A stretch of DNA of 64,000 nt, taken from the IMG/VR virus record IMGVR_UViG_3300037313_000284, positions 64,001 through 128,000 of that record. One strand, given 5' to 3'. Shown piece after piece: positions 4,890 through 55,981 of this stretch; positions within the stretch are counted from its first letter, which is position 1, and the number at the start of each line of letters is the position of its first letter. The position numbers and the translations under genes were made by a program. Under the pieces are notes generated by a model. That model had not been told where the DNA came from, did no database searches, and worked only from the letters and a program-made list of their open reading frames with translations. The DNA is from a virus.

Positions 4890-7800
4890 TTACTTAGAAC
4901 CCCGTACAACACCGTTGTAGCTGAGGCTCCAAACACGCTTACCATTGCTCGTTAGCATAAGGCCCTCGTCGGCATCGAACTTAGCCTTGGTGGGATAACC
5001 CAACTCGACGTATTCGCTTTCGGGAGCGTCCTTATAAGGCGACAGAGCAAAGTGATCACTACGAGTCTTACGAACCCACATCGGAGCACCAACTTTGACG
5101 CCTTCAATCGGAGCGCCATTATTAGTAATCAGCGTGATCGTAGCCCGCCCGCAGTTCTTAAGGAAGAACATGAACTCGTCAAAGTCTTCCACAACCGGGT
5201 TGTGCTTTTGCTCAGGCCATTCTTCAATCGTGATATCATCGTCGTCATCGTCGAGGCTGATAGGCTTCTTAGCACCACCAGTCGGACGCGCCGGACGAAC
5301 GTCAGTAATAGTAGCCGCAGGTTTCGTTGGCTTACTAATAGCTGGTAGTTCGATATGACCGCCGTTAATAGTGTCAAACGACGCCAGGAACTCTTCCGGG
5401 TCTTCCAGAATGTCCCCATCGGCAATGATTTTCTTCGCTTCTTTCTTGGCTTCAGAAATATTGCGATAGAACTTCACGCCCATGTCATCGAACTTCTGCA
5501 CCTTCTCGGTGTTCGGAATTCCCTGCATCAGTTTGCCGAGAATGCTTAGCACGTTGAACGGATGCTTACTAATCGAAGCGCACAGGTAGAATTCACCCTT
5601 CTGCACGATTGGGTAGAGGCGGAACGTTTGCGGGTCTCGCGAGGAGGCCCGTGTCGGAACGCGCTTCTGTTCCACTTTCATGAAGTTAGTGATTTCCGAG
5701 AAATCGTACGGCTCGACCTGACGCAGTTTACCACGCGAAGACAGGCCTTGCGCCACACCTTCAATCTCAGCCATGAGATTGCGAGGAATGACGTAGTTTG
5801 CCTTACTAACACGCGCTAAGAACACATCAAGAGCCTTGCGGTTCTTGAACCCAACTCGCGCCATATCAGGGAAAGGCTTGAACCCGTAGCGAGTATAAAG
5901 AGTATCCATCGCGTTGCCTTCAGCGGTATCGTAACCAACGATGGCAAGTTGACCGTTAATAGCGAGAGCTTGAAGAGCCACGGTTGCTTCCGTTTCCTCT
6001 TCTTCGTCCTCTTCCTCTTCGTCCTCGTCTTCGAATTCCTCTTCCTCGATTAACGTATCAATCGGGTCTTCCGGTTCCTCGTCTTCTAGTTCGTCTTCAA
6101 GCCCAAGCAGATCGATATCGTCTTCATCGAAGTCGTCATCGCCAGCCTCGAAATCAGTAAACTCAGGCTCAGGCGTGTTACGCCCGCGCTTGCGCTTATC
6201 TGCCTCTTGGCGTTGCTCGTTAGTAATCGGCTTGTGCTTCGGCATGCGAACCGGAGCGCCAGACTTACCTCTGATCGCGTTAGCTAACGTCTTAGCGCCT
6301 TCCTCATCCATCGGCACGTAAACGCACGTCTTCGGGAGACGAACACGCTTCATCTTCTCGCCCTTAGAAGGCGGAAGGCCGGGGATGCGGATAGTAAGAC
6401 GGTGACCATTACGCAGAATGCCATCAACGATACCAGGACCGAATTCGGTCATCACGTAATCGCCGATTTTGATTTCTACGTTGTCAATAACCGAAGGATC
6501 GTCGTCTTCATCTTCGGGGCCGTCACCTTCCTCGTCGCTATCTTCGTCCTCGTCACTGACGGGCACGGTTAGCGAACGAATGGGCTGCATATCAAACCCC
6601 ATGGGGTTAATAGGCTGGACACCCGGTAGCCACGGAACGTAGCACGACGCCGAACCGGGAATGGCTTCCCCTTCAATCGTCGGCACAACCACAGCCGCAA
6701 CGAAGTCTTTAACGCTTAGCGGACGACCAGCGTCATCTAGTAACGTTTGACCGGTAAGCGACTCAACTTCACGACCAATCTTTTTCGTTTCCTCAAGAGA
6801 CGATTGCTGGAACCAGTTATTATACTTCTTTTGTTGTTCGAAGTATTGGTTCAGCAGTTCCTCGGGGAACGATTGAATGATCTTCATCGACATGCGAACG
6901 GGCGGCAGGATTTTAACGTCGCCCTTAAAGAACGTATTGCGGAAGCTCGGCACGTAACCGAATTCCACCATCGCGTTATTAAACTTCTTCGCTAGCAGAC
7001 GAGCGATACGCAAGTCGTCAATCGTCGGAGCGCCGGAAGGCTTAGTGGCAACGATAATGTCGTAACCAAGGCTATCACGGTTGAACTTACCGAACGGATC
7101 GGGACGGCGGATACGTGCTAACGATTGGGTTTCACCACCCGGCGTCCAGACTTGCTGCATGCGGATGATACGCGAACCCACTTGGAGGTTGTGACCTTCC
7201 GAGATACTAATCTCGTCGGCAACCATGAAGCGGATTTTGTCGTCAGTCTTGAACTGCTCGACCTTATCGAACGCGCCCGCTTGATAACGCACGGAACGCT
7301 TCTTTAGATCGGGCGGCATGTTATCCCAAACGTGCTTACCAACGAACTTGTTGGGAGCCATCAGGATTACTTTGTTGCCAGGATCAGCACGGTAGGTCGG
7401 GGCATGCTCTTTAATAACAGCAAGCTTACCCTTTTCATCCATGTGCGCGTACATAAGATCGTACGCGTACGCTGCCTTGACCGAAATCAGATCGTCAGCC
7501 TCAGGAATAGCGAGTTCCAGCGTTCCAGGCTCGGCTTCTTCACCGTCATTCTTGAACTTGAACTCTTCGTAGACGAACGTGCCGTCCACGAAATCATTAA
7601 ACTGCGTAGGATCGTTGACAAACCGGTCAATAACCGAGAAGTGCTTACGCACCACGCGTTCAATCTTATTGCTGATCGCGGGATCGTCGTCACCGCTCTC
7701 AACTTTTTCCAGATCACCCTTAACCGCCTTGTCGTCTTTGATGCGGCTAATAGCTTTTTGGAACAACAGATTGTAATAACGCGTTTGCAGTTCGGTCATC

Positions 7801-10622
7801 TGCACGCGGTGATAGATTTCCTGCATCTTGGGAAGCATATAATCCCAAGAGCGGCTATCCTTACGGTACACCAGCGAGTATTCACGCATCGCGCCGTCAA
7901 TAGCGTCCGCGTCTTCAGGCGAGCCGATTTGCTTGGCGTTCTTATCACCAAGGAACGCTTCAGCGAAGGCTTCCACGTCACCACCCAGCATAGCCGGGTT
8001 AATCTTTTGCGTTTGACCCACAAGGTCGGTCACGACGTTATTAATCGTGGTACCCGAGGACAGACGCACATATTCCGCTTTAGCGCACAGGCAGAGGAAC
8101 GCTTGCGCCAGACCGGAGTCTTGGTTCTTGATCTTGTGACTTTCGTCACCGCAAACGTAGTCCAACCCAGCGCCCGCGAGGATATCCACGAAAGGATATG
8201 CCTTCAGGGGCTTCGCACTACCGAAGTTATCATAGCTAGATACTTGCTCGTAGCTGGACTTCAGTTCCGCGTCAGTGTGCTCGTTACGCAGCGTATTGTA
8301 GTTAGTAACGATAATCGTGTTGCGCGGCAGATCACGAATGAAAGCGATGACTTCCGCCATCGTCATGTTCATACCGAACGGGTTCATAAGCACGTCACGC
8401 ACGTGCTGATAAGTGAACGGGAATGCGTTCATCTTACCGTTAGTGAACTCGTTGATTTCCGCAACAAACTGTCGCACTAGGTTATTAGGAACCACGACGA
8501 CCGGGCGCTTGATCAACCCTTTGGCTAGCAGCAGGTTAATATCAGCGATGATGCAGTTGGTTTTACCACCACCCGGAGCCGCGCCGATGATAGCAGATTG
8601 CGGCGGTTCGCCACGGTCAACAGCCTGAATGTATTCCGCTTGGTGCGGAAACACAAAAGACATACGCGACGTGTCGATGTTCGGAATAACAATCGGCTTA
8701 CTGCGGTCCAACGAGTCAACGATATTATCGCGCTCATTGGTACGACGCTTTTCGTGGAAAGCCGGGATGTTAACCGTATGCTTAGCCACGATGTAGCAGT
8801 CGGTATCGGCTTCCATGTTATTAAGCACGCCACCTTCAGGCTCGCGCTTGTCACCGGAAGACCAAACCTTCAGTGCAACAGCAGCAATGGCCGCTGCGCC
8901 CTTATTAAGGAAGCTAATAATCTCGTTTTCAGCACGCTCTTGTTCGTCCGTCGTGCCGTCTTGCAAGTCGCCGACCAGACGACGTGCCCACATTTCTTGT
9001 TCGCTATTATAAGCGGTAGCATCACGCACAGCGTACGTGAAGTAAGCCCAATCTTCGAAATCGACCTTCAGCGGGTTGACTTGCGTCGGCGGGATAGCGC
9101 AACCAGACACTAGCGCATTAACTTGCCTATTAATGCTAGCGTCTTTAACAGCCGACATACGCTTGACCATTTCGAAAAGCGTACGACCTTCAACGGACAA
9201 CGCTTTGAAACGATCTCCATTCCATCCGAAACCAGAACCATTAATAATCCCACGCAGAGCGTAAGGATACATCTTGGCAATGGTGATCGGGTCTAGCGCA
9301 CGCGCACCACGAAGGTTCAGGCTACTAACAGTGCCTTCAATCGTGGTGAAAACCATGACTTCGTTATGGTGGTCAACGTACAGCACGGAAGGCGGGAAAC
9401 GGAACTTAGGTGCGTCGCGGTCGCGACTACCTTCCGTCAACTTACTCATATCGATGGCCGAAAGACTTTCGAACCATTCGTTACTAGCGGATTGGTATTC
9501 CGCCATCTTGTTTTCTTTAGGTAGCCGAATGACGCGATTACGACCCGTAATCAAATAACCGTCTTCGTTAGTACGGACCATCGGCACGTAGCCGGTCCGC
9601 TCTTCCTTCTTTCGGTTGCGTCGCGCCATCGCCATAGGCGTAGGCTTACGAGGCTTAGCACGCTTCCACGCGGTAGCCGCACGACCCTTTAGGTCTTGCG
9701 TAAACGTCGCCGTGGCCTTGTCATCCGTAGCGCCCGAAGCCGCACGAATGATCGAGTTAATATGCGTCATGAACATGAACGGCACGAACTCTTCTTTGCT
9801 TTCGCAATAGAGAGTCCACCACGCATAATCCAGCGGAAGGTGCAGTTCAGCGACGATTTCAGCCGCCATCACTACGGCGGAATTGCGTGGCAGTGCGCCG
9901 CTATCGGCGATAGTGTATGGAAGTCCACCGACTTCCGTAATGTAGTTGTTATTACCAAACAGACGCATAGTCAGCGAAACGCCAACGCCCTTCGGCAGCG
10001 TCTTGACGGCTTGGAATTCTTCGGTCTCACGAACGAAGTCTTGCATGTAGGGTGAGAATTCGCCCTTCACTAACTTCAAGAACGTCGCTTGGTCGACAAC
10101 GGACTCTAGGTTGCCATCCTCACCGAACATCAAATTCGGCTTAGTATTACGACCCTCACGCTTGTATTCCGTGGGATGCTTGTAACCAGGAAAGAGTTTT
10201 TGCAGCAGACGCTCTTGATCCGGATCGAACGGATTAATAACCAACCGCGTGCTCATCGGCTTCGCGGAAAGGATCAATCCGTCTTGGCCTTCCTTACGAA
10301 TAGCCACGAACGGGAGACGCGCAAAGGTCGTAGCGACCTTTGCAGGCATTTCGAAACCCTGAAGTGTACCTTTACCCGATGCTAATTGCTGCATCGTGTA
10401 GAAGTTGTCGGTCTTGCTATTAATAGCCGAGGCAATAGCCCCACGTGCTAGCACGTGGTTAGCTGCAATCTCTAAACCGACAATAGCCGCCGCAGCGTTG
10501 CGGAGGTTATTATGGATTTCGACGCGATCCGACTCGGCCTTGTCCGCCGCTTTGTCTTCCCCTCGCGCGTATTCCATATAGCCTTGGTAACCGCCCGTAG
10601 AGAGTAGGGACCTTTTGTACAT
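4890..10622 (-). CDS. Large SNF2-like (SF2) helicase/ATPase, multidomain
   Basis: 1910 aa; Walker A GAAPGGGKT, motif Ia VVVVPNNL, DESH, SGT, ISEGHNLQ, QSLARIRR; acidic linkers. Confidence 0.85.
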   Translation of the reverse strand: MYKRSLLSTGGYQGYMEYARGEDKAADKAESDRVEIHNNLRNAAAAIVGLEIAANHVLARGAIASAINSKTDNFYTMQQLASGKGTLQGFEMPAKVATTFARLPFVAIRKEGQDGLILSAKPMSTRLVINPFDPDQERLLQKLFPGYKHPTEYKREGRNTKPNLMFGEDGNLESVVDQATFLKLVKGEFSPYMQDFVRETEEFQAVKTLPKGVGVSLTMRLFGNNNYITEVGGLPYTIADSGALPRNSAVVMAAEIVAELHLPLDYAWWTLYCESKEEFVPFMFMTHINSIIRAASGATDDKATATFTQDLKGRAATAWKRAKPRKPTPMAMARRNRKKEERTGYVPMVRTNEDGYLITGRNRVIRLPKENKMAEYQSASNEWFESLSAIDMSKLTEGSRDRDAPKFRFPPSVLYVDHHNEVMVFTTIEGTVSSLNLRGARALDPITIAKMYPYALRGIINGSGFGWNGDRFKALSVEGRTLFEMVKRMSAVKDASINRQVNALVSGCAIPPTQVNPLKVDFEDWAYFTYAVRDATAYNSEQEMWARRLVGDLQDGTTDEQERAENEIISFLNKGAAAIAAVALKVWSSGDKREPEGGVLNNMEADTDCYIVAKHTVNIPAFHEKRRTNERDNIVDSLDRSKPIVIPNIDTSRMSFVFPHQAEYIQAVDRGEPPQSAIIGAAPGGGKTNCIIADINLLLAKGLIKRPVVVVPNNLVRQFVAEINEFTNGKMNAFPFTYQHVRDVLMNPFGMNMTMAEVIAFIRDLPRNTIIVTNYNTLRNEHTDAELKSSYEQVSSYDNFGSAKPLKAYPFVDILAGAGLDYVCGDESHKIKNQDSGLAQAFLCLCAKAEYVRLSSGTTINNVVTDLVGQTQKINPAMLGGDVEAFAEAFLGDKNAKQIGSPEDADAIDGAMREYSLVYRKDSRSWDYMLPKMQEIYHRVQMTELQTRYYNLLFQKAISRIKDDKAVKGDLEKVESGDDDPAISNKIERVVRKHFSVIDRFVNDPTQFNDFVDGTFVYEEFKFKNDGEEAEPGTLELAIPEADDLISVKAAYAYDLMYAHMDEKGKLAVIKEHAPTYRADPGNKVILMAPNKFVGKHVWDNMPPDLKKRSVRYQAGAFDKVEQFKTDDKIRFMVADEISISEGHNLQVGSRIIRMQQVWTPGGETQSLARIRRPDPFGKFNRDSLGYDIIVATKPSGAPTIDDLRIARLLAKKFNNAMVEFGYVPSFRNTFFKGDVKILPPVRMSMKIIQSFPEELLNQYFEQQKKYNNWFQQSSLEETKKIGREVESLTGQTLLDDAGRPLSVKDFVAAVVVPTIEGEAIPGSASCYVPWLPGVQPINPMGFDMQPIRSLTVPVSDEDEDSDEEGDGPEDEDDDPSVIDNVEIKIGDYVMTEFGPGIVDGILRNGHRLTIRIPGLPPSKGEKMKRVRLPKTCVYVPMDEEGAKTLANAIRGKSGAPVRMPKHKPITNEQRQEADKRKRGRNTPEPEFTDFEAGDDDFDEDDIDLLGLEDELEDEEPEDPIDTLIEEEEFEDEDEEEEDEEEETEATVALQALAINGQLAIVGYDTAEGNAMDTLYTRYGFKPFPDMARVGFKNRKALDVFLARVSKANYVIPRNLMAEIEGVAQGLSSRGKLRQVEPYDFSEITNFMKVEQKRVPTRASSRDPQTFRLYPIVQKGEFYLCASISKHPFNVLSILGKLMQGIPNTEKVQKFDDMGVKFYRNISEAKKEAKKIIADGDILEDPEEFLASFDTINGGHIELPAISKPTKPAATITDVRPARPTGGAKKPISLDDDDDDITIEEWPEQKHNPVVEDFDEFMFFLKNCGRATITLITNNGAPIEGVKVGAPMWVRKTRSDHFALSPYKDAPESEYVELGYPTKAKFDADEGLMLTSNGKRVWSLSYNGVVRGSK

Positions 10623-26846: not shown

Positions 26847-29800
26847 CTAGACTGCGACTATTTCTACCTCGTTAATAGTGGGGTCACCACCACCAGCGCC
26901 AGTAGCCGACGAGCTAGTGCCTACTGCAATCCAAAGTTCCGTGGACAGCGCCGTGAAAGTAAACGACGGATGATCATAAGGCTTCGGAGAGTCGGTAGAC
27001 GGGATGCTAGTATTTAGATACTCACTAGTGATAGCGTTAGCCGATCTAGACGCACCTAATTGCAACGAAGTTGTATTAGTGGTGTTTTGATCGGTAGCGC
27101 CCATCGCTAGCTTAATAGTAGCACGATACGTAACGCCGACAGTAAGCGGCTGTCTTGCGGCAAGGTTCATACGCAGAGTCGGGAAGCGTCCGGTATTAGT
27201 AACTACCGGCTGACCTTTGTCTCCGTAAATGACGCCTTGCGCCACCACAACGGTGTCTTCACCCACGGTCTTAGTCTTAACAAGATCGGGGTTGTGCACC
27301 ACGTTCATCGGCGTCCACGTGCCACCAGTGATTTGCTGGATGGATTCGTTTTGTGCCGAGGTTAACACTTCATTGTAGTATAGTTTGAACGAGGCTTCGA
27401 AACCAGTCTTAATAATCTGCCCGGCGGGTTGTGCAGGACGCGCCGGAACTGTGATCGTATTACTAAGCACTTCGAAACCACCCACCGTGACTTTGGTCCT
27501 ATGCGACGTGTTAAGGTCGGCAAATTCCAAGTCATAGCGAGCCGTTGCAGCCGCTCCACTAATAGCAACAGTGTCGCGTTGGTGTTCGAACGTAAACGTG
27601 CCTGAGATATTACCCGACCACAAACCATAGCCAGTATAAATTTGCGTGTTTTGGTTAAGGTCAATAGCAGAACCAGCTTCGATAAAGTCCGGCCCATCCC
27701 AGCCGCCATAACGACGAACGAATTGTTTCGGAGCTTCTAGGTTGACAACCGCGCCAGAAGCCGCATTCGTAGGTGTGACAGTTAATCTTTCTTGACCACC
27801 CAACTTTTTCGGAAAGTTGAATGACCACGTAGACCAACCAAACGCATTACGACGACGGAACTGCACGTAATACTTACGCGTAGGCAAGTTCGAAACTGAA
27901 CCGGAAGCCGGAGCGTTAGTAATAGTCGTCCACGTCATCTGATCGATGCTATAGCGAACCTGATATTCTAGAATCGGATAACCAGGAGTAGTGTGTCCAA
28001 CGTTCGTTAAGTTCCAGGCGAAACCAGTCGCAGTAGCAGTTAATATGCCTAGCGTAGCAGCCTTATCCGAACCAGCGTTAGTCTTGAACGGTGTAATACA
28101 CTCCGGACGACCTTCCCAAACCGGGAGAGCCATTAGATTTAGTGTATTACGTAATAACGTGTAGAGCGCTTGATATTGCGCAGACAAGAACGTTGCCGTT
28201 CCAGTCTCATACATGTCCATGGTTAGGAATGTCATGTAACGGTCAACGAAAGCAACAGCCGCGCCTAGTTGACCAGCGGTCGCCCAAGTATTACCGCCAG
28301 CTAGAACCGACCAACCATCCCATCCGTTTGGACCGTTTCTAAAGCACCCGATATTAAGCATTTCGGGAACGCCTGCGCCACATGAAGTACCCAGATAGTC
28401 AGCGTCAATCTGACTATCGAAGTTACTAGCAATCGGCGGCGGTTGTGACGGAGTTTGAGTACCCCAATGAGGTATACCCACGTCTTCTGGATAGAACGTC
28501 CTGAAATAAACGTCGTGGTTACCAGGATAATTAGTAGCAATCCCGACGAATTCAACAGGAACGTAGAACGGTTGGTGCGTAGGGTTGCTCTTAATATTTA
28601 AGCATTTCGTCATCAACCCGGACACTTTTTCCCAATAGGCGTGTCCGAATAATTGTACGAATTGTTTATGCCCGTTCCACTGCCCAGCACCCGCAGCACC
28701 ACGGAAGCTTCTATGGTCATAGATATCTAAGTTATTAGCGCCAAACGTCAGCGCTGTAATCCAAGCTGCTTGCGGCGCTGACTGTCCGGCCGCCAAGACT
28801 GCCGTAAGCCACTTAGACCAAGTGATACCGAAGTCCCGTGAATATCCGCTGTCACTAATCTTATCGACCATGAATCTACGACGTTTTTCCGCGTCGTGAA
28901 TCCACCAAGGTTGTAGGGCGGTAAAATATTCTGCGCCCGTTGCGGTAACAGTTGCTAAGTCTGGTGCACCAGACGGCAGAGTGAATCCATTACCCAAAGC
29001 TGCGCGGTTAGCCATACTAACAGTATAGCGAGTGGATTTACTGGTAGCGCTAGGCGAAGGTGCAATCGCGCCGTTCGGCGGCACGGAGCTAACAATATGT
29101 AGCACGCCGTAACCATCGAATATCCGCCATTGCCCAACTTGTGGTGTAGTTAATCCACTTCGACGAATAGATTTAACAACTGATTTCTCGTTACCAATAG
29201 CGATGGCAATCGGGGAACTCTTAGTCGCGGGGTCCACGTTTAGTGTGTGCGTGTACGTAGTCGAAGAAGCACTACCGATGCCGCCTCCGTCAGCCCACAC
29301 CGCTAGCATGCCGTCGAAGCCTTGCGCTTCGCTGCCGTAAACCATCCACGGGTCAATCATCACGCCGTTGGCCCAATACGATTGGCCTGTCATTAGGGTG
29401 GCGCTACCACCCGGAGGGGTCATCGTAAAGTTACCGGAAGCCGTATTAACACCATCTGGTGTAATCTGCGTGATATTAAACACGCGATCCGAGATCGCGA
29501 ACGGCTGACCGTCGGCGTAGCGACCCACAAGCACCGGAACGCTAAAGTAGAAAGTCACATCACCATGAGTGATCGACGATTGTAGCGAAGTGGGCGTCAC
29601 CGAAGCAATAACCGTGACAGCAATTGCAAAATTGGGCGACGTTAGACCGGTAGCGACGCTAGTGGCACGCACGATAACATCGTAAACGTTATTACCGCCA
29701 ACGTCGACGGGGTTTTCGAAATCCTTAGGCGAACCTTGCCACACAAGGTTACTACCGACGATTTGGAAGTTGGCCGCGTCGGCTCCGCCAACGATTGCCC

Positions 29801-29933
29801 AAGTAACGGACTCGTTAGCGGTTAGCGCGTGAGTTAGCGTAGTTTCGTCAACTACGACGACCGTATTCGCCATCGTAACCACAGGGGCGGGTAACGGGTT
29901 ATACGTTAATAACGCCGCTACGCTGGTGCTCAT
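26847..29933 (-). CDS. Putative fibre/receptor-binding protein with cadherin-like and FN3 domains
   Basis: DFENPVDVGGNNVYDVIVRAT (cadherin-like), YQVRYS..YYVQFRRRNAFGWSTWS (FN3). Confidence 0.6.
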   Translation of the reverse strand: MSTSVAALLTYNPLPAPVVTMANTVVVVDETTLTHALTANESVTWAIVGGADAANFQIVGSNLVWQGSPKDFENPVDVGGNNVYDVIVRATSVATGLTSPNFAIAVTVIASVTPTSLQSSITHGDVTFYFSVPVLVGRYADGQPFAISDRVFNITQITPDGVNTASGNFTMTPPGGSATLMTGQSYWANGVMIDPWMVYGSEAQGFDGMLAVWADGGGIGSASSTTYTHTLNVDPATKSSPIAIAIGNEKSVVKSIRRSGLTTPQVGQWRIFDGYGVLHIVSSVPPNGAIAPSPSATSKSTRYTVSMANRAALGNGFTLPSGAPDLATVTATGAEYFTALQPWWIHDAEKRRRFMVDKISDSGYSRDFGITWSKWLTAVLAAGQSAPQAAWITALTFGANNLDIYDHRSFRGAAGAGQWNGHKQFVQLFGHAYWEKVSGLMTKCLNIKSNPTHQPFYVPVEFVGIATNYPGNHDVYFRTFYPEDVGIPHWGTQTPSQPPPIASNFDSQIDADYLGTSCGAGVPEMLNIGCFRNGPNGWDGWSVLAGGNTWATAGQLGAAVAFVDRYMTFLTMDMYETGTATFLSAQYQALYTLLRNTLNLMALPVWEGRPECITPFKTNAGSDKAATLGILTATATGFAWNLTNVGHTTPGYPILEYQVRYSIDQMTWTTITNAPASGSVSNLPTRKYYVQFRRRNAFGWSTWSFNFPKKLGGQERLTVTPTNAASGAVVNLEAPKQFVRRYGGWDGPDFIEAGSAIDLNQNTQIYTGYGLWSGNISGTFTFEHQRDTVAISGAAATARYDLEFADLNTSHRTKVTVGGFEVLSNTITVPARPAQPAGQIIKTGFEASFKLYYNEVLTSAQNESIQQITGGTWTPMNVVHNPDLVKTKTVGEDTVVVAQGVIYGDKGQPVVTNTGRFPTLRMNLAARQPLTVGVTYRATIKLAMGATDQNTTNTTSLQLGASRSANAITSEYLNTSIPSTDSPKPYDHPSFTFTALSTELWIAVGTSSSATGAGGGDPTINEVEIVAV

Positions 29934-29946
29934 GAAGCACCCGACT

Positions 29947-30354
29947 TTAGATAGTTGAGGCATTTAGACTTATCCCATCGTCTGGAGGGATGACACCAAC
30001 GAGTAACCATTGTTGTCGAGGTATGTCAGGCAACGTTAGTGTCTGATTGGCGAATTCGTGCAGGCTATCACCACAATAGATGATCATGCCGTTAGTAATA
30101 AAGTAGTGGCACCTACCATGGATGCCGTCTTCATCGTTGGGTCCTCCCCAACTAATATTCATAGACGGTTGAAAGGTAGGCGAGTCATGGTTCAGGTTAT
30201 AAGACCACCTAGCTCCGGTATGCGTCGGCTGGTCTACGTAAAAGGGATGCAGGTGTTTGCATGCGGGGCACCAATGCGCGTAAACCGCGTTATCGCCCCA
30301 TTCGTAATGGCGCATTATTTTAGCGCTAAGCCACTGCGCTTTGACTTGGCCCAT
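29947..30354 (-). CDS. DUF6527-like protein
   Basis: CPAC..H...W...PTFQPSM...CHYFITNG..YCGDSLH. Confidence 0.7.
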   Translation of the reverse strand: MGQVKAQWLSAKIMRHYEWGDNAVYAHWCPACKHLHPFYVDQPTHTGARWSYNLNHDSPTFQPSMNISWGGPNDEDGIHGRCHYFITNGMIIYCGDSLHEFANQTLTLPDIPRQQWLLVGVIPPDDGISLNASTI

Positions 30355-30697: not shown

Positions 30698-33600
30698 TTA
30701 GTTGGGTAGTGCAGTCTCGGCCCACTTCTTACGCAACACGTCCGCGTATTCGTGAGTGATGTAGAGAGGGAATTCAGGCGTAGGCAACTTACTAACATCG
30801 ATATCGCCGCAGTTGTAAGACAGCGTGATATGCGGGTTAAAAGTTGGGTACTTCCACACGGCCCCTAAATCTTGCGAGAGGTCAAAACGTTCTTGCATGA
30901 TTGGAGAGTCGTACTTAAGCACCAGTACCTTGTGGTCGCCGTCTTCCCAAACTTCCAGCTTGAAAGTATCAGGACTTACTAATAATCCACTACCCGTCAG
31001 CATATAATCGACCGGCTCCCAAGGTTCGCTTAGGGGCTTTTCGCTATAGACCAACGTAGAGTGCATCTTAGTAAAATCGGTAATCGGATTTTGAATCAAG
31101 TTGACCGCAATCCAATGCTCGATTTGACGTTGCGTGCGCTTACTAAACTTCACACCAACGTAGACGCCTTCTGCCGCGACTTCGAATTGGCTAAAATCAA
31201 ACGAAGCCTCTTCGTCGTCCTCGTGTCCACTCTCAGGCAAGATGCCCGCTAGTGAAGCTAGCTTCTCGACATTGTGATAGAGTTTAATACGGGTCGTTTT
31301 CTTTCCTTGTAGAAACTGCCAGAACGCTTTTTGGCCTGGAAGACCCGCGCCCCAATCTTTAGTAACGTACGCAGCGAGCTTACCCGGAAATGGGGTAGCT
31401 TCTTTGCCGCTAGCCACAAGATAAGGACGAATGCGATTAGCAATATTTGCCAAATCACGCGCAGCGCCTTTACGCTGTTTCGCCTTAATCTTTTTAGTGA
31501 TTTCAGCAAGTTCGTGTGCGAAGACATAGTTCAGGAACGCCGCTATGGGTTTCGCCTCGCGCTTACGCACCAGACCTATGTTATTAGTAGTAGCTGTTTC
31601 GACCGGAACGATCATCAGCTTCTTAGTCTTCTCATTCACACCGAGCTTAAGGTTGAACGTCGTCTTACCATCCGCTTCTCTAACCTTCGGCGCTTTGACC
31701 GAACGTTCGGGAGCTTCTGGTTTATCCGGCGCTTTTGCCTTAGGCGGCTCTTCGTCCTTTTTAGTAGGCTTAGAGCTACGTGCTGCGTCTTCTTCCTCTA
31801 GGATTCTAAAGAACGCGTCGAATGCTTCCTTGCGGGTAGCAAACTGTTCGTCCTCACCAACCCCATCGCGGTTGAAGATAATAAACCACTTGCCGGTTTT
31901 GATCACCTTATCGATGATGCCGCCGTTTTCCGGGTCTTTATTAGTAGCCGCGCCGCCGGGCGTTGCTTCGGTCCAACCGGGAGGTAGATCAGATTTAGGT
32001 TGCTGCGTCTGAACAGTATTAACAGGCGCATTCTCTAGCGCCGTCGCGTTTTCTTTCAACCAATCCAGGCCCGCTTGCGTTAGCTTAACAAATTCACGCG
32101 GTCCCTGAAATCCTTGCATAAGCAGTCCACGAGCTATTAACTTGTCGAGAGTGTTACGAAGGAAATCTGCTGCAACTTGCGGAGCCTTGCCTCGAATATC
32201 CTGTACATAAACGACCCATTCCGGATCATCCTTGAACATAAGAAGCACGGTACGCTCGTCGCCAGTTAACGCTTCGCCTGCGAACTTCGGCAAGAACGGG
32301 AAATTCATCGAGCGATCGTTCTGTCGAACCATGCTTTGCAAGTTAGTAAATTGATTACGCCTGCGCAGCAAGAATCGACGCTTCCACATTTCGAATGAAC
32401 CGCTTTCGCTGTCCGATCCGAATTGGTTAGCCGGAACTTCCTCGCCTGGTTTGAAGTTAGTCCACAGTTTATCCCAATAGCCTTGTAGACCAATTGGCAC
32501 TTTGTTAACCAGCGAACTCTCAGAATTAACTTCGGCGACAGAAGGCGCGTGGAACGTACCCAAATACCACATATAACCGCCGAAAGCTTTTTGATACACT
32601 TCCGGCAATTCGTCTAACGGTAGGTCGCGATAGCTATCCATAAATTTCTGGACTTCGGCACCTGATAGTAAAGCGTCTTCGAGAACTTGTTGCTTCTCTA
32701 CCGCTGTCATTTCGGAGTATGACTTCCGCTCATAAGAACGGTCTTCGTCATTAACGTCCGTCGACAATTCGGCACGCATGGTGTCGTCTAGATTAGGTAC
32801 GACCGGAGTTTGCAGCGACTTGTCTAATACCGAACCTTCTTTACTAATAACAGTAGCCGCGATACGCGCCAAGATATCCATAGCTGCGTCTTTATACGCG
32901 TTAGGAAGCTGGGCTTCGTACTGACCAAACACGTACAACGCGACCGTGAAGTTACGGTAGTTGTCGTCGTGCGGCATATTAGTAGATGTCAGGAACGGAT
33001 TGTTGCCACCGAACAGGGTCGTCAGCCAATAGGTACTAGCTAACTCGTTGGCGAAATCGTCGAAATCCATCTGCCCTTCCGGCTTGCCACCGGTCAGGTC
33101 AGAGAACGGAAGGTTATTAGTATAATAGCTGATTGCCGCTACCGATTTAAGTGCGGCATTTGCCACTTCGCGTTGCGAGCGCGTGCCGTCCTTACTAATC
33201 ATCGTCAACGCTATATAGGCAGAGTCAACGAGTACCCGACGTAACGGACCACCACCCTCTTTCACGTTCGCAGCGGCTTGTTCAAGCGTTGCGAAGTAGC
33301 GAGAGTCTTCTTTATCCATAGTGCCGGAATTACCAACGCCGTAAGTAGTAATTCTATCCGTAAATTTAACAGCCCACGCCTGTCGTTCAGCGCCTTGCCG
33401 CATGCTACTCTGTGTAGTCGTTTGTGTTGGCTGGTTAATAGCTTTGATAGGCGGGGCATGGATTAAATCGCGACCAACGTAAACGCCGTCGGCTTTTACC
33501 GTGGCTTTACCCTGTGCACGCTTCATCGCCCGCTTAATCATCCCAAAAACAGTCGGGTTGTTCCACACGTCGTACATGTGTGGAACCCATTCTTTGGATT

Positions 33601-34447
33601 TAGGCGAAGCACGCTTCAAACCTTGAACTTTGATTCCCGGTTTGTCAGTAACCCATTTCTTATCGTCTAAGAAACGTTGTGACTGCGTAATCTTATAGGT
33701 ATCAAACAACGCAGCTAGTTCTTTATCAGACGTACGGTAAATATCAACGCCGGTGTCCCAATCGATTTTGTTGAAACCGTTGATATTAGAATCAATGAAT
33801 TCGCCGTAGAACCTACTACCCGGATGCGCTAACGTAGTAACCGTACGTTGACCTTTAGTCCGGAACGCTGAATTCTTGTCAGCGATAGTCGTAGCGACCT
33901 TGAATTGGAAGTCATTAACGATATCGTCGAACACACCGGGGAGCATATAGGCGAATCGCATGAAATCAGGACCGTCTTCTTTAAATCGGAAGACCGCCAA
34001 CGTCATGTTACTACGCAGCTTACCTTCAGCGTGCTTAAGCATCGTTCCCGAGTAATCGGTGCTCGGAACTTCAATGCCGAAATCTCTAGCGCCGTCGGCC
34101 ACTTCTTCTAACTTCGCCCAAAATTCTGCGTGGTGCGAATCGTGTTCACCGCCTCTGAAATCTTTGACGACTAGGAACATGTACGCGTGCACCATTTCGT
34201 GCAGCAGAATTCCGTCCAGTCCTTCTTTCTTATAGTCGTAACGGTTGTCTAACTCGATGATGCATAGGTCTTTATTAACCACACCGTCCACCGGATAGGG
34301 ATGGCGGAACACACCTAATGCACCACGCGACGTCACGTTAGCTAGATTTCCGACGCCGAGACGTAGGTCTTCTGGCAGTTCATTATTAAAGAACAATCGG
34401 TTGAACCGTAGGTATTGTTCCCTAAGCGGATAGTCTTCGGTCTTCAT
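30698..34447 (-). CDS. Multidomain protein: N-terminal SprT-like metalloprotease, C-terminal Acb1-like 2H phosphoesterase
   Basis: LLHEMVH...H..EF at the N-terminus; HSTLVYS and PHITLSY (two HxT motifs) in the last ~155 aa. Confidence 0.85.
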   Translation of the reverse strand: MKTEDYPLREQYLRFNRLFFNNELPEDLRLGVGNLANVTSRGALGVFRHPYPVDGVVNKDLCIIELDNRYDYKKEGLDGILLHEMVHAYMFLVVKDFRGGEHDSHHAEFWAKLEEVADGARDFGIEVPSTDYSGTMLKHAEGKLRSNMTLAVFRFKEDGPDFMRFAYMLPGVFDDIVNDFQFKVATTIADKNSAFRTKGQRTVTTLAHPGSRFYGEFIDSNINGFNKIDWDTGVDIYRTSDKELAALFDTYKITQSQRFLDDKKWVTDKPGIKVQGLKRASPKSKEWVPHMYDVWNNPTVFGMIKRAMKRAQGKATVKADGVYVGRDLIHAPPIKAINQPTQTTTQSSMRQGAERQAWAVKFTDRITTYGVGNSGTMDKEDSRYFATLEQAAANVKEGGGPLRRVLVDSAYIALTMISKDGTRSQREVANAALKSVAAISYYTNNLPFSDLTGGKPEGQMDFDDFANELASTYWLTTLFGGNNPFLTSTNMPHDDNYRNFTVALYVFGQYEAQLPNAYKDAAMDILARIAATVISKEGSVLDKSLQTPVVPNLDDTMRAELSTDVNDEDRSYERKSYSEMTAVEKQQVLEDALLSGAEVQKFMDSYRDLPLDELPEVYQKAFGGYMWYLGTFHAPSVAEVNSESSLVNKVPIGLQGYWDKLWTNFKPGEEVPANQFGSDSESGSFEMWKRRFLLRRRNQFTNLQSMVRQNDRSMNFPFLPKFAGEALTGDERTVLLMFKDDPEWVVYVQDIRGKAPQVAADFLRNTLDKLIARGLLMQGFQGPREFVKLTQAGLDWLKENATALENAPVNTVQTQQPKSDLPPGWTEATPGGAATNKDPENGGIIDKVIKTGKWFIIFNRDGVGEDEQFATRKEAFDAFFRILEEEDAARSSKPTKKDEEPPKAKAPDKPEAPERSVKAPKVREADGKTTFNLKLGVNEKTKKLMIVPVETATTNNIGLVRKREAKPIAAFLNYVFAHELAEITKKIKAKQRKGAARDLANIANRIRPYLVASGKEATPFPGKLAAYVTKDWGAGLPGQKAFWQFLQGKKTTRIKLYHNVEKLASLAGILPESGHEDDEEASFDFSQFEVAAEGVYVGVKFSKRTQRQIEHWIAVNLIQNPITDFTKMHSTLVYSEKPLSEPWEPVDYMLTGSGLLVSPDTFKLEVWEDGDHKVLVLKYDSPIMQERFDLSQDLGAVWKYPTFNPHITLSYNCGDIDVSKLPTPEFPLYITHEYADVLRKKWAETALPN

Positions 34448-34471: not shown

Positions 34472-34795
34472 TTATTGCTCACTCCAGTCCTTACATGTAA
34501 CCTTACCGCCGCCGTCAGACAGGCAGTAAATAGCGCCACGATAAATACCGTTGGTCGGAAAGAAGAACGGCGGGCTGGCGGGCTTCAGCCGGAAATAACC
34601 GGGAGCCCCGATAGCTACGCTGTTGTCGTAACCCCACCAAAGATCATTGGTCTCGCTGTTGTTTTGGATTACTAATCCAGCCCGGTCAGCGTTGGCGGGA
34701 ATGAGCAACATCGGAACGATGCCGACCATCTTGCTATGGTCGTTTACGTCATCGGCATCAATGGTGACTGTCGGACGAAAGTAGTTGCTAGACAT
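34472..34795 (-). CDS. Small beta-rich putative virion protein
   Basis: ANADRAGLVIQNNS...GAIY pattern; adjacent to a fibre chaperone-domain gene. Confidence 0.5.
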   Translation of the reverse strand: MSSNYFRPTVTIDADDVNDHSKMVGIVPMLLIPANADRAGLVIQNNSETNDLWWGYDNSVAIGAPGYFRLKPASPPFFFPTNGIYRGAIYCLSDGGGKVTCKDWSEQ

Positions 34796-35225
34796 TTTTA
34801 ATAATCCCAACAGAACGCTTGAGCGATTCCAACTCAGCCTTAGTCGTGGCGAGTTCGGAAGCTAACGAATTAATAAGTAAGAACAGAGTAGACGTAGGAT
34901 CGATGGCGAGCATTCCGTCTGTCCAGTCGCGAACAAGTGTGCTTAACAACGGACGTTCGTTTAACGTCTGCGCAATAACACCGAAGCGTTGCTCTTCTGA
35001 GTCCATACCGGACTCAGGTGTATAACGATAGGCAACGATTAACTTCTCGATCTCTTCAGCTTTAAGGCCATCAATGATTGGTTCAATCTCTCGCTTCAGG
35101 CGTGCGTCAGAGGCTATTAGGGCAGGAGAATCGATACCATCCACCTTGTCCGCATCCATTCCGGTTCCGGCACCTTGATAATTTTTGTGCCATACCTCGC
35201 CGCCGTTTACCTTTAGCCTTGCCAT
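34788..35225 (-). CDS. Peptidase S74 / intramolecular chaperone domain protein
   Basis: DADKVDG then SDARLKREIEPI...FGVIAQ...coiled coil. Confidence 0.75.
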   Translation of the reverse strand: MARLKVNGGEVWHKNYQGAGTGMDADKVDGIDSPALIASDARLKREIEPIIDGLKAEEIEKLIVAYRYTPESGMDSEEQRFGVIAQTLNERPLLSTLVRDWTDGMLAIDPTSTLFLLINSLASELATTKAELESLKRSVGIIKNV

Positions 35226-35250: not shown

Positions 35251-35258
35251 TAAATTAG
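35251..35258 (-). promoter_or_regulatory. Putative late promoter CTAATTTA
   Basis: Recurrent motif after a terminator. Confidence 0.6.
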
Positions 35259-35270
35259 CGCTTAGAGCAC

Positions 35271-35309
35271 GAAAAAGCCCCGCTACCAGCTAAGGCAACG
35301 AGGCTTTTT
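35271..35309 (-). terminator. Intrinsic terminator
   Basis: AAAAAGCCCCG...CGAGGCTTTTT. Confidence 0.65.
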
Positions 35310-35310
35310 A

Positions 35311-54753: not shown

Positions 54754-55011
54754 CTAGTCTGACATGAAGGTGGGAGCTTCGCGTTCAAATCCGTAATGCT
54801 GCCAATAGGCTTCACTCTCAGCATCGGGGATCAATGGGTCTCTAGTAGCCTCGTACGGGAGTTTGCTAGGTTGACCACGTGACCACTGATCGTTGTCACG
54901 ATGTACCCAAAGATAATTGGCGTGCTCCGTCTTGAGGAATTCATGCAGAGGCATCCGACAAAATGCGAACTTGGCTTGCGTGGGCTTATCAAAATGATCT
55001 TCCAACACCAT
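54754..55011 (-). CDS. Hypothetical protein
   Basis: Start refined to MVLEDH. Confidence 0.55.
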   Translation of the reverse strand: MVLEDHFDKPTQAKFAFCRMPLHEFLKTEHANYLWVHRDNDQWSRGQPSKLPYEATRDPLIPDAESEAYWQHYGFEREAPTFMSD

Positions 55012-55027
55012 ATCTACCCTTATGTCA

Positions 55028-55981
55028 TTATAATAACTCGAACTTAGTACCTTTGACGCCAAAACCGATGAAACCCCAATGGCGACGCGGCTTGCCTTTC
55101 GGATCACTATCATTAACCACCTTGCGAACGTATTTCGCAGTTCGGTTACTATGTGTGACCGTGTAGCTCTGGCCTTCAACGTTGGGGCGCGTTTGGCGCA
55201 TGTGCAAACCAGCCACCTTAGCCGCCACGTATGACAATGTGTTAGGCACACTAGCAGCGAAGGGTGATTCCGCACCACCGGGAGCGTCATAAACCCAATC
55301 GATCATTCCGCCGCCGCGCAACTTCGGTAATCGAACAGGTACAACCGCAGTTAATACGGTGTGCCTTGGGACGAACGGTAGTAGGTTGCCTTCCTCGCGA
55401 CACCACCGAAACAAAGCCCGGTGGCTGCAATAAACGTGGACGTGGAAGGTATTAATACGCTGCCGTTGCTTGTCCTCGCGTTTGGGCGGCAACTCGTCGT
55501 GATCGAAGGACCACAACAAATCGAAGTTATTAGCTGTGGCAAACTTCTTCAACTCCTGTAGGTGCTCAGCTAGCGCGTTCACCTGTTGCGCTGCGGTAAG
55601 TTCCACAGCCCCTTTGCCGATGCGGCAAACAAGCGTCGCTTGGTACCTTGTGCGATATACTAACCAGCACGTGAACAAGTAGTTGTATACGTTGACACCC
55701 CAAGGCATACGAGACAGCGCGCTGCGCAGTGTTTTGAAATCCTGCATAGTTGCCGTATCAATCCACTCTAGTAACAGACGCGTATCGTTGCGGTATTTCC
55801 GCAGTTGGTTCGGAGCTAACGGCGAGTTGTAATAATTCGCCACGCTCTCTAGCAAGGTGCGCAGACCGTACGCTTTATGCCAAACCTCTTTGTCGTCGCG
55901 GTCGTTAGAGCGGAACACATGACGAAGGTGGGCGTCAGGGTCTTTCGGTATACGGTATTTCGATAGACTAACGCCAGCCAT
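55028..55981 (-). CDS. Hypothetical protein
   Basis: 317 aa; contains FHVHVY. Confidence 0.65.
   Translation of the reverse strand: MAGVSLSKYRIPKDPDAHLRHVFRSNDRDDKEVWHKAYGLRTLLESVANYYNSPLAPNQLRKYRNDTRLLLEWIDTATMQDFKTLRSALSRMPWGVNVYNYLFTCWLVYRTRYQATLVCRIGKGAVELTAAQQVNALAEHLQELKKFATANNFDLLWSFDHDELPPKREDKQRQRINTFHVHVYCSHRALFRWCREEGNLLPFVPRHTVLTAVVPVRLPKLRGGGMIDWVYDAPGGAESPFAASVPNTLSYVAAKVAGLHMRQTRPNVEGQSYTVTHSNRTAKYVRKVVNDSDPKGKPRRHWGFIGFGVKGTKFELL

Follow-up and report, generated by a model that had tools for sequence, protein, structure and literature searches.

An Acb1 domain as the exchangeable last module of a conserved multi-domain phage carrier protein

The gene at positions 30698-34447 (minus strand) of the window analysed here, a stretch of 64,000 nucleotides from the uncultured IMG/VR phage IMGVR_UViG_3300037313_000284 (CheckV completeness 68%), is a single open reading frame whose 1249-aa product, P0001, ends in an Acb1 domain. 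What is new, as read from the comparison of homologous proteins, is the setting of that domain: Acb1 is the exchangeable last module of a conserved multi-domain carrier in which E-x-A tripeptides stand between the modules. The reading that we favour, to which we assign a probability of about one half, is that P0001 is a late-expressed polyvalent protein which the prohead protease would cleave at E-x-A, and that its Acb1, travelling in the capsid together with the carrier, would disarm CBASS signals. Direct observation covers the domains of P0001, the intact active site and fold of its Acb1, the conservation of a carrier whose cargo varies, the motif at the module boundaries and the enrichment of that motif in late and head proteins.

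Results

The initial annotation had recognised the motifs HSTLVYS and PHITLSYN in one 1249-aa reading frame and had attributed its C-terminus to Acb1, and both statements hold. The domain comprises residues 1093-1244 (30716..31171, minus strand) and is delimited by Pfam, PHROG and PDB matches together with a structural model. PF23474 (Acb1) aligns over profile positions 1-143 of 144 with an E-value of 3.7e-31 and a score of 108.2 bits, where 27 is the cut-off; scanning the genome gives it 113.6 bits. PHROG 755 matches with an E-value of 3.6e-30, and the sequence of FBB1 Acb1 in PDB 7t26 with one of 6.8e-15. The HxT/HxT tetrad, formed by H1129 and T1131 in the first motif and by H1206 and T1208 in the second, is invariant in a 17-sequence alignment. 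In the numbering of the paper on Acb1, the catalytic tetrad is H44, T46, H113 and T115, the aromatics that stack on the bases are Y12, W74, F107 and W147, and E141 is the Glu that contacts adenine N6 (PMC9117128). On alignment with RB69 gp57B and FBB1, the base-stacking aromatics of P0001 (Y1096, W1167, Y1200 and W1242) are all kept; the equivalent of E141 is Asp in P0001 (D1236), and the homologues P0002 and P0003 retain Glu. The model of the domain has a pLDDT of 88.8, with low confidence in the last ~12 residues, and finds its top structural match in 7t26 (TMt 0.89, rmsd 2.2 Å), LigT reaching about 0.5. By sequence and by modelled fold, the C-terminus of P0001 is a true Acb1 domain with an intact active site.

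We consider it very improbable that this 2H domain acts on RNA 2',3'-cyclic phosphate ends or on 2'-5' oligoadenylate-type molecules and not on CBASS signals. The versatility of 2H enzymes, the replacement of the adenine-contacting E141 by Asp and the label of PHROG 755, 'RNA ligase', would all suit such a target; yet the Acb1 profile scores 108 bits as compared to 12 bits for LigT, the nearest structures are those of Acb1, and conservation extends to the lid Trp and to every one of the four base-stacking aromatics. That Acb1 is usually a small stand-alone protein, as had been stated beforehand, is borne out by IMG/VR, where 79 of 80 loci are free-standing (median 155 aa) and a single one is fused. 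A word-based search of low sensitivity for longer Acb1 fusions returned only the query itself.

The opposite end of the protein is a Spartan/SprT-like zincin (residues 1-130; 34058..34447, minus strand), in which HEMVH occupies residues 83-87 (34187-34201) and H105/H106 supplies the third ligand. This assignment had been made from the HExxH motif, and the homologues substantiate it: PF10263 (SprT-like) scores 42.7, 31.6 and 34.6 bits in them, above the cut-off of 25.6, and 25.1 bits, just below it, on residues 49-118 of P0001. Among nine homologues compared, H83, E84, H87 and H105 are invariant; Foldseek matches the model to Spartan 6mdw/6mdx with probability 1.0 and a TMt of 0.51, and phage SprT homologues are among the matches of a BFVD search. 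No reports of virion-associated SprT proteins emerged from a literature search.

The stretch between the SprT-like and Acb1 domains has no assignment in Pfam or PHROGs. Domain parsing with AlphaFold and Foldseek, as the initial annotation had advised, recognised a MarR-like winged helix there, besides the Spartan-like zincin and the Acb1 fold. All on the minus strand, the successive regions are as follows. Residues 145-330 (33458..34015) appear in the AF2 model as a beta-rich extension of the N-terminal module, partly of low confidence and conserved with P0002, and residues 349-720 (32288..33403) make up a helical region that is conserved in the family and has no Pfam, PDB or Atlas match. The winged helix (residues 725-805; 32033..32275) resembles MarR/ArsR-type regulators with a Foldseek probability of 1.0; in an Atlas search with residues 380-810 all scores were below 0.8, and MarR was the sole lead. 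Residues 818-885 (31793..31996) are a mobile domain of ~65 aa with more than 100 matches, common to large polyvalent proteins and carried by P0014, P0047 and P0051 together with MuF_C, LPD1/3/5/38/39, ART-PolyVal and InPase. Following a Pro/Lys/Glu-rich disordered linker (residues 892-928; 31664..31774; pLDDT below 50), residues 929-1070 (31238..31663) constitute the best-conserved domain of the carrier, which is 60% identical to its counterpart in P0002 and is also present in distant forms consisting of the carrier alone; in a Foldseek search of the 1092-aa model, neither this domain nor the helical region had any match.

The first ~1090 residues, hereafter the chassis, are conserved in about six metagenomic lineages in addition to those distant chassis-only forms, and over this length P0001 is collinear with P0002, P0003, P0004, P0005/P0151 and P0006. 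The cargo that follows is Acb1 in four lineages (P0001, P0002, P0003 and P0151), ART-PolyVal in P0004 and other modules in P0006, while the distant L014/P0007 has a chassis without cargo. P0005 was entertained as another cargo-less form and rejected: its cluster includes a full-length 1832-aa member with Acb1, P0151, and its own contig bears a 321-aa second piece, so that P0005 is probably a split gene. The slots held by Acb1 and ART-PolyVal also accommodate a module with a DH[DE]GRHRM motif and a small one with 'EKVG[ST]WGYKA[FY]'. With its Spartan-like zincin, helical region, winged helix and conserved C-terminal domain, the chassis is a small undescribed family. Against the phage collection, megablast of the gene at the DNA level gave no match, tblastn of the whole protein found free-standing Acb1 genes only, and the N-terminal 1091 aa matched nothing but an SprT gene in Tenacibaculum PTm1/PTm5 and, in a single Pseudomonas phage, the small domain; the chassis is absent from every cultured phage in the collection searched, and a metagenome scan yielded distant SprT genes only. 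A constant chassis with varying cargo suggests, as far as sequences can tell, a modular route for delivering counter-defence enzymes.

Chassis and cargo meet in a disordered junction (residues 1073-1093; 31169..31231, minus strand; pLDDT below 50) that ends in FEVAAE and is a candidate cleavage site. FEVAAE had been placed exactly at the boundary of the Acb1 domain, and this is where it lies: it forms residues 1088-1093 (31169-31186), is unstructured in both models and directly precedes the opening strand of Acb1 (G1094), its F-E aligning with the point at which free-standing T4-like Acb1 naturally begins. E-x-A occurs at the equivalent chassis/cargo junction in P0003, P0004 and P0006. A further copy, E-T-A, lies in the C-terminal lid of P0001 (residues 1244-1246; 30710..30718, minus strand), three residues before the stop, and the WAETA to which it belongs also stands between Acb1 and the next module in P0002.

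Across the cargo, modules are separated by E-x-A, mostly by E-T-A, which occurs 10 times in 2219 residues as compared to 0.83 expected (Poisson p 2e-8), all 10 copies lying no further than about 15 residues from a module edge defined by Pfam or by homology. The whole proteome of the phage has 28 copies against 14.9 +/- 3.8 in shuffles, at a density of 0.87 per 1000 aa in late-region proteins versus 0.27 elsewhere; ETA falls in the N-terminal part of the capsid protein (residue 63), of the prohead protease (residue 60) and of the portal (residue 41), and four times in a 770-aa head polyprotein. The prohead protease is encoded at genome positions 54926-55777. In relatives, the capsid proteins have only a Glu-rich stretch at the position of ETA. 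The junction of P0001 reads E-V-A, not E-T-A, and a general enrichment of EVA/EIA was rejected, EVA occurring 14 times in the proteome against about 16 expected; likewise, only some sites fit the phiKZ-type S/A/G-x-E rule, which was not adopted. The earlier idea of a polyprotein thus receives strong support from comparison, in that the carrier is kept, the cargo is exchanged and E-T-A-type motifs lie between modules, whereas cleavage is a step that we infer.

The protease that would free the cargo might be the SprT-like zincin and not the prohead protease, in cis or in trans, in the capsid or post-injection, and possibly activated by DNA like Spartan. We find this rather doubtful. Its active site is intact and invariant, and autoproteolysis has been proposed for the zincins of polyvalent proteins (Iyer et al. 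2017, PMC5512222), but E-T-A is also enriched in head proteins, which are not expected substrates of a cargo-releasing zincin, and the cargo-less distant homologues L014/P0007 and P0029, which have nothing to release, keep an intact zincin active site; the zincin therefore has another role.

The 1249-aa gene is the last of a transcription unit headed by a promoter-like TAATTTA motif (35251..35257, minus strand), which comes just after a hairpin and T-run at about 35271-35310, so the late-motif unit described initially can be recognised. The first gene of the unit (34788..35225, minus strand) encodes a 145-aa protein with a Peptidase_S74 (tail-fibre intramolecular chaperone) domain, and 24 nt separate the end of the second (34472..34810, minus strand; 112 aa) from the ATG of the 1249-aa gene. 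Of the 16 copies of TAATTTA, 11 lie between genes and are oriented towards the gene that follows; the portal gene and a connector operon are among those preceded. In number the motif is not above chance (11 versus 10 expected); its signal is one of position and strand, not of copy number. In L014, a distant phage contig, TAATTTA is kept upstream of the chassis gene, and the order SbcD-primase-chassis-connector is common to both phages.

The location of the gene bears on whether its product is packaged at all. The gene has replication genes as its immediate neighbours, with the portal some 27 kb away, and phage SprT homologues that are free-standing, for instance in Tenacibaculum PTm1, are found among non-structural genes. 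Moreover, a capsid-targeting peptide cannot be recognised at the N-terminus of P0001, which like P0002 starts directly at the SprT domain, an N-terminal E-x-A being present only in P0003 to P0006. The protein might then be a late cytoplasmic enzyme, either a tethered multi-domain one or a processed set, whose Acb1 destroys CBASS signals as late structural proteins trigger CBASS. The late-type promoter context, the adjoining replication genes and the missing targeting signal are all in keeping with such a role, and T4 Acb1 is itself a cytoplasmic enzyme (PMC9117128). We nevertheless judge it unlikely, for it leaves unexplained that the tripeptide separating the modules is that of the capsid protein, the prohead protease, the portal and the head polyprotein, and that a homologue carries ART-PolyVal, which is typical of delivered polyvalent proteins.

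Discussion

If P0001 is indeed packaged and cut, its precursor would be loaded into the prohead, where the prohead protease of the phage would cut it at E-x-A. This would release Acb1, about 155 residues long, from the chassis, and both would remain in the capsid until they reached the next host together with the DNA; there Acb1 would linearise CBASS signals (for example 3'3'-cGAMP and cA3) before the effectors fire. For the cleavage, the identity of the protease, the packaging, the injection and the substrate, this scheme draws on analogy with known packaged and delivered proteins and on the motif shared with head proteins. A broader version, which we advance tentatively, is that the chassis is a dedicated delivery vehicle, packed into the capsid with several exchangeable counter-defence enzymes arrayed at its C-terminus (Acb1, ADP-ribosyltransferase and other modules), each of which would be freed at E-T-A by the head-maturation protease.

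Acb1 has been studied so far as a small cytoplasmic enzyme made post-infection. Were it also stored in the capsid and released by a protease, the enzyme would be there from the moment of DNA entry, and phages could use it to disarm cyclic-oligonucleotide signalling. The layout of chassis plus cargo also offers a guilt-by-association route to new anti-defence proteins, for instance through the DH[DE]GRHRM and 'EKVG[ST]WGYKA[FY]' modules, and, should the chassis be a delivery vehicle, they could be sought directly among its unassigned cargo modules. The E-T-A punctuation, in turn, is a definite candidate for what the prohead protease recognises in these large phages, a group about which little is known.

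The domain of P0001 agrees in family and fold with known Acb1 (T4 gp57B, Erwinia phage FBB1; PF23474; PDB 7t26/7t27) and likewise has the HxT/HxT tetrad, the C-terminal lid and the aromatics for base stacking; in contrast to these free-standing proteins of about 150 aa, it forms the final module of a much longer protein (1249 aa), is flanked by E-x-A and has Asp for E141. Its N-terminal partner shares HExxH and a downstream His with the SprT/Spartan/Wss1-type DNA-dependent metalloproteases and ArdC, as well as a fold match to the SprT domain of human Spartan, but differs from them in being borderline in Pfam and embedded in a phage late protein.

T4 Alt, the internal proteins IPI-III and P1 DarB/DdrB are head-packaged, protease-processed and injected anti-defence proteins. 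The course proposed for P0001 is similar, in that the head protease would cleave a late precursor at a short motif containing Glu and the capsid would keep the products until their injection with the DNA, and the ART cargo of P0004 is a parallel to Alt; unlike these T4 and P1 proteins, P0001 has no capsid-targeting sequence that we could find and belongs to a family that places several cargoes on one carrier and not in separate genes.

A further parallel is with polyvalent proteins. Head-packaged polyvalent proteins that bear zincins, including some with 2H domains, have been described, and 2H phosphoesterases within them were already predicted to counter nucleotide-signalling defences (Iyer, Burroughs, Anand, de Souza, Aravind 2017, PMC5512222); our full-text literature search returned no paper linking Acb1 with polyvalent proteins. 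P0001 shares with them the joining of unrelated activities (here zincin, winged helix and Acb1) in one polypeptide, a zincin-like metallopeptidase, the exchange of domains between relatives, the ART-PolyVal of its homologue P0004 and the small domain that also accompanies MuF_C and LPD domains. Its putative link to the head consists of the late-type motif at the start of its unit and the linker motif common to head proteins, with no portal/MuF gene adjacent. Whereas the 2H fusions described so far are to MuF or portal domains (PMC5512222), the cargo of P0001 and its homologues is a C-terminal array punctuated by E-T-A.

Results

P0001, the 1249-aa product of a single unbroken ORF (window 30698-34447, minus strand), pairs an N-terminal SprT-like zincin with a C-terminal Acb1 domain, and our sequence comparisons point to a polyvalent protein that carries Acb1 as exchangeable cargo. 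The initial annotation had placed Acb1 in the last ~155 residues, and this assignment holds: Pfam recognizes Acb1 (PF23474) on residues 1093-1244 (E 3.7e-31, 108 bits versus a cut-off of 27), PHROG 755 supports the same identity, the FBB1 Acb1 structure (PDB 7t26) matches at E 6.8e-15, and the AlphaFold model of residues 1088-1249 (pLDDT 88.8) has 7t26 and 7t27 as its top structural matches (TMt 0.89, rmsd 2.2 A), with E. coli LigT far below at ~0.5. Low model confidence is limited to the last ~12 residues (the lid) and the first six, FEVAAE (1088-1093), which do lie, as had been proposed, exactly at the domain boundary, directly ahead of the first Acb1-fold strand. The Acb1 active site comprises an HxT/HxT tetrad (H44, T46, H113, T115), the stacking aromatics Y12, W74, F107 and W147, E141, which contacts adenine, and the C-terminal lid (Hobbs et al. 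2022, PMC9117128). In alignments of P0001 with RB69 gp57B, a homologue from a Klebsiella phage and 16 from IMG/VR, the tetrad corresponds to H1129, T1131, H1206 and T1208 and the aromatics to Y1096, W1167, Y1200 and W1242, the sole active-site change being an Asp (D1236) at the E141 position, where two sister proteins keep Glu. Judged by alignment and model, this domain, present in one copy in the 140,864-bp record of the phage genome, is complete, and it would be surprising if the 2H domain acted on a non-CBASS substrate.

In the cultured-phage collection, the first 1091 residues of P0001 have no relatives except for an SprT gene and the small domain (residues 818-885, see below). An exhaustive HMMER search over 1.84 billion representatives returned five collinear full-length homologues, P0002-P0006 (1448-2105 aa, 39-45% identity; P0005 is probably encoded by the leading part of a split gene), and the distant relatives P0007 and P0029. 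P0001-P0006 are alike over their first ~1090 residues, here termed the chassis, until a conserved end (...EEAxxDFxxF-E-x-A), and diverge thereafter. Behind the chassis, P0003 has Acb1; P0002 a small module, Acb1 and three further modules; P0151 (1832 aa, cluster mate of P0005) a small module, Acb1 and one further module; P0004 an ART-PolyVal domain (PF18760) flanked by two unknown modules, without Acb1; and P0006 other modules, while P0007, a 1068-aa ORF in L014 (from a 205,908-bp IMG/VR contig), ends with the chassis and carries no cargo. One cargo module, marked by DH[DE]GRHRM, is common to P0002 (1698-1875), P0004 (1835-1982) and P0006 (1424-1594); it has no match in Pfam or by PDB sequence search and might be ParB-like.

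That Acb1 is usually a small stand-alone protein was borne out by an IMG/VR survey in which 79 of the 80 best Acb1 loci were small free-standing ORFs (median 155 aa) and the remaining one an Acb1-PcfJ fusion; fused Acb1 is therefore rare. In a tree, the four chassis-borne Acb1 domains cluster apart from 69 free-standing ones, with a support of 0.96 for three members and 0.54 for four. The Acb1-PcfJ fusion is a 638-aa protein (L034:5947-7863, plus strand) with N-terminal Acb1 and a PcfJ-like domain, and its Acb1 is placed as sister of the chassis-borne domains.

At the other end of P0001, SprT-like (PF10263) scores 25.1 bits on residues 49-118, slightly below a cut-off of 25.6 that several homologues exceed. 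The HExxH motif on which the initial annotation relied is sound, since HEMVH (83-87) and H105 are invariant across nine homologues and the model of residues 1-1092 (mean pLDDT 68) has the human Spartan SprT domain (6mdw/6mdx, probability 1.0) as its best PDB match, with phage SprT homologues among the BFVD matches. Domain parsing with AlphaFold and Foldseek thus recovered a Spartan-like zincin, a winged helix and the Acb1 fold; between the first and last, residues 145-330 of the model form a beta-rich extension and 349-720 a helical region, with the MarR-like winged helix next (725-805, Foldseek probability 1.0). A small beta/alpha domain then covers 830-891, and a disordered linker rich in Pro, Lys and Glu (892-928) separates it from a conserved domain at 929-1070 and its disordered tail (1073-1092).

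A ~65-aa mobile domain on residues 818-885 (window 31793-31996, minus strand), which has no Pfam model, gave >100 matches in the HMMER search, some free-standing (67-100 aa) and others within proteins of 3000-4800 aa, three of which hold MuF_C, LPD1/3/5/38/39, ART-PolyVal and InPase. MuF_C, LPD, ART-PolyVal and InPase are hallmarks of polyvalent proteins, whose commonest domain is a zincin-like peptidase and which include 2H phosphoesterase domains fused to MuF or portal domains (Iyer et al. 2017). By its domain content P0001 appears to belong with these proteins. Iyer et al. 2017 also predicted that their 2H domains degrade defence-related nucleotides, and the general idea is thus already published; what appears to be new is its connection with Acb1 as a family and with this particular chassis, given that a full-text search of the accessible literature found no paper with 'Acb1' and 'polyvalent protein' together and that the Acb1 literature examined makes no mention of such a fusion.

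The modules are punctuated by E-x-A, mostly E-T-A. In P0002, ETA/EIA lies 6-14 residues ahead of Acb1, and ETA stands exactly at the Acb1 end and precedes each of the last two modules; ETA occurs at the chassis end and on either side of the ART module in P0004 and flanks Acb1 on both sides in P0151; P0001 has EVA ahead of Acb1 and ETA three residues from the stop, and where the chassis ends, P0003 and P0006 have E-F-A and E-I-A. Since the chassis-end E-x-A is also present with non-Acb1 cargo, it is a feature of the junction and not of Acb1. Cargo holds 10 ETA in 2219 residues versus 0.83 expected (p 2e-8), and the chassis 7 in 8030 versus 2.6 expected. Together, the conserved chassis, variable cargo and E-x-A junctions considerably strengthen the earlier description of P0001 as a polyprotein.

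ETA is likewise overrepresented in the phage proteome (28 occurrences versus 14.9 +/- 3.8 in shuffles, none of 300 reaching 28), where other orderings of E, T and A occur 7-17 times each and EVA and EIA show no enrichment; the excess sits in late-region proteins (0.87 per 1000 aa versus 0.27 elsewhere). The major capsid protein (assigned through tblastn), prohead protease (phrog_18299) and portal (phrog_16240) have ETA at residues 63, 60 and 41, respectively. Five ETA sites in a 625-aa protein adjoining the capsid gene (genome 44587-46464; L004:4587-6464, minus strand) and four [VR]-E-T-A sites in an acidic head polyprotein of 770 aa encoded two genes away from the protease (genome 57258-59570; L004:17258-19570, minus strand) make both candidate prohead-protease substrates. 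In three cultured relatives the capsid protein is Glu-rich at the alignment column of the capsid ETA but lacks T-A, and Glu is plausible as P1 of a putative cleavage at E-x-A. Processing of P0001 by its own zincin is unlikely: cargo-less distant homologues keep an intact zincin active site, and for that reason cargo release is unlikely to be the zincin's sole role. Speculatively, it may itself be an effector, a DNA-dependent protease like Spartan or ArdC.

The P0001 gene is the last of a three-gene unit, after genes for a 145-aa free-standing Peptidase_S74-type intramolecular chaperone (window 34788-35225, minus strand) and a 112-aa protein. A hairpin with a T-run and then TAATTTA (35251-35257) precede the first gene, the motif by 26 nt, so that the unit does have the putative late motif ascribed to it. 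TAATTTA shows no excess over chance in copy number; 11 of its 16 genome copies fall in the ~5% of sequence that is intergenic, all 11 directed toward a next gene that starts 24-346 nt downstream (9 within 108 nt), including copies ahead of the portal gene and connector operon. Sites lie at window 4001, 19069, 19374, 20401, 21105, 23595 (plus strand), 23613, 30383, 30657 and 35251, and at L014:9890-9896, ~94 nt upstream of a chassis gene whose product is only ~24% identical; in L014 the genes keep their order of SbcD, primase, chassis and connector. This placement and conservation therefore make late, structural-type regulation likely, as far as motifs and gene order can tell. Late synthesis followed by activity in the cytoplasm, with P0001 not packaged, is a possible but less favoured reading.

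Just downstream of the P0001 gene (window 26847-30354, minus strand), under a TAATTTA of their own, lie genes for a 135-aa DUF6527 protein and a 1038-aa protein that matches neither PHROG nor Pfam. Window 4890-10622 (minus strand), at a distance of two genes from the portal, encodes a 1910-aa SNF2/ResIII giant (phrog_21391; Pfam SNF2-rel_dom).

Discussion

Our best reading, to which we give a probability of about 0.5 as a whole, is that P0001 would be made late in infection and taken into the prohead, where the prohead protease would cut it at E-x-A, and that free Acb1 and chassis would be kept inside the capsid until both pass into the next cell along with the DNA. Taken together, these analyses make a virion-delivered anti-CBASS protein plausible. 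The source is an uncultured IMG/VR entry of 140,864 bp (CheckV completeness 68%), and the full genome probably measures ~200 kb, close in size to the contig behind L014.

Several known systems offer parallels. The Peptidase_S74 chaperone domain is normally the C-terminal part of a tail fibre or spike, and in T4-like phages Acb1 (57B) likewise comes after a tail-fibre chaperone gene (57A), an arrangement resembling that of the P0001 unit. The 1910-aa SNF2/ResIII protein resembles packaged anti-restriction proteins of the P1 DarB type, and the route proposed for P0001 would parallel those of T4 Alt, the T4 internal proteins and the P1 Dar proteins.
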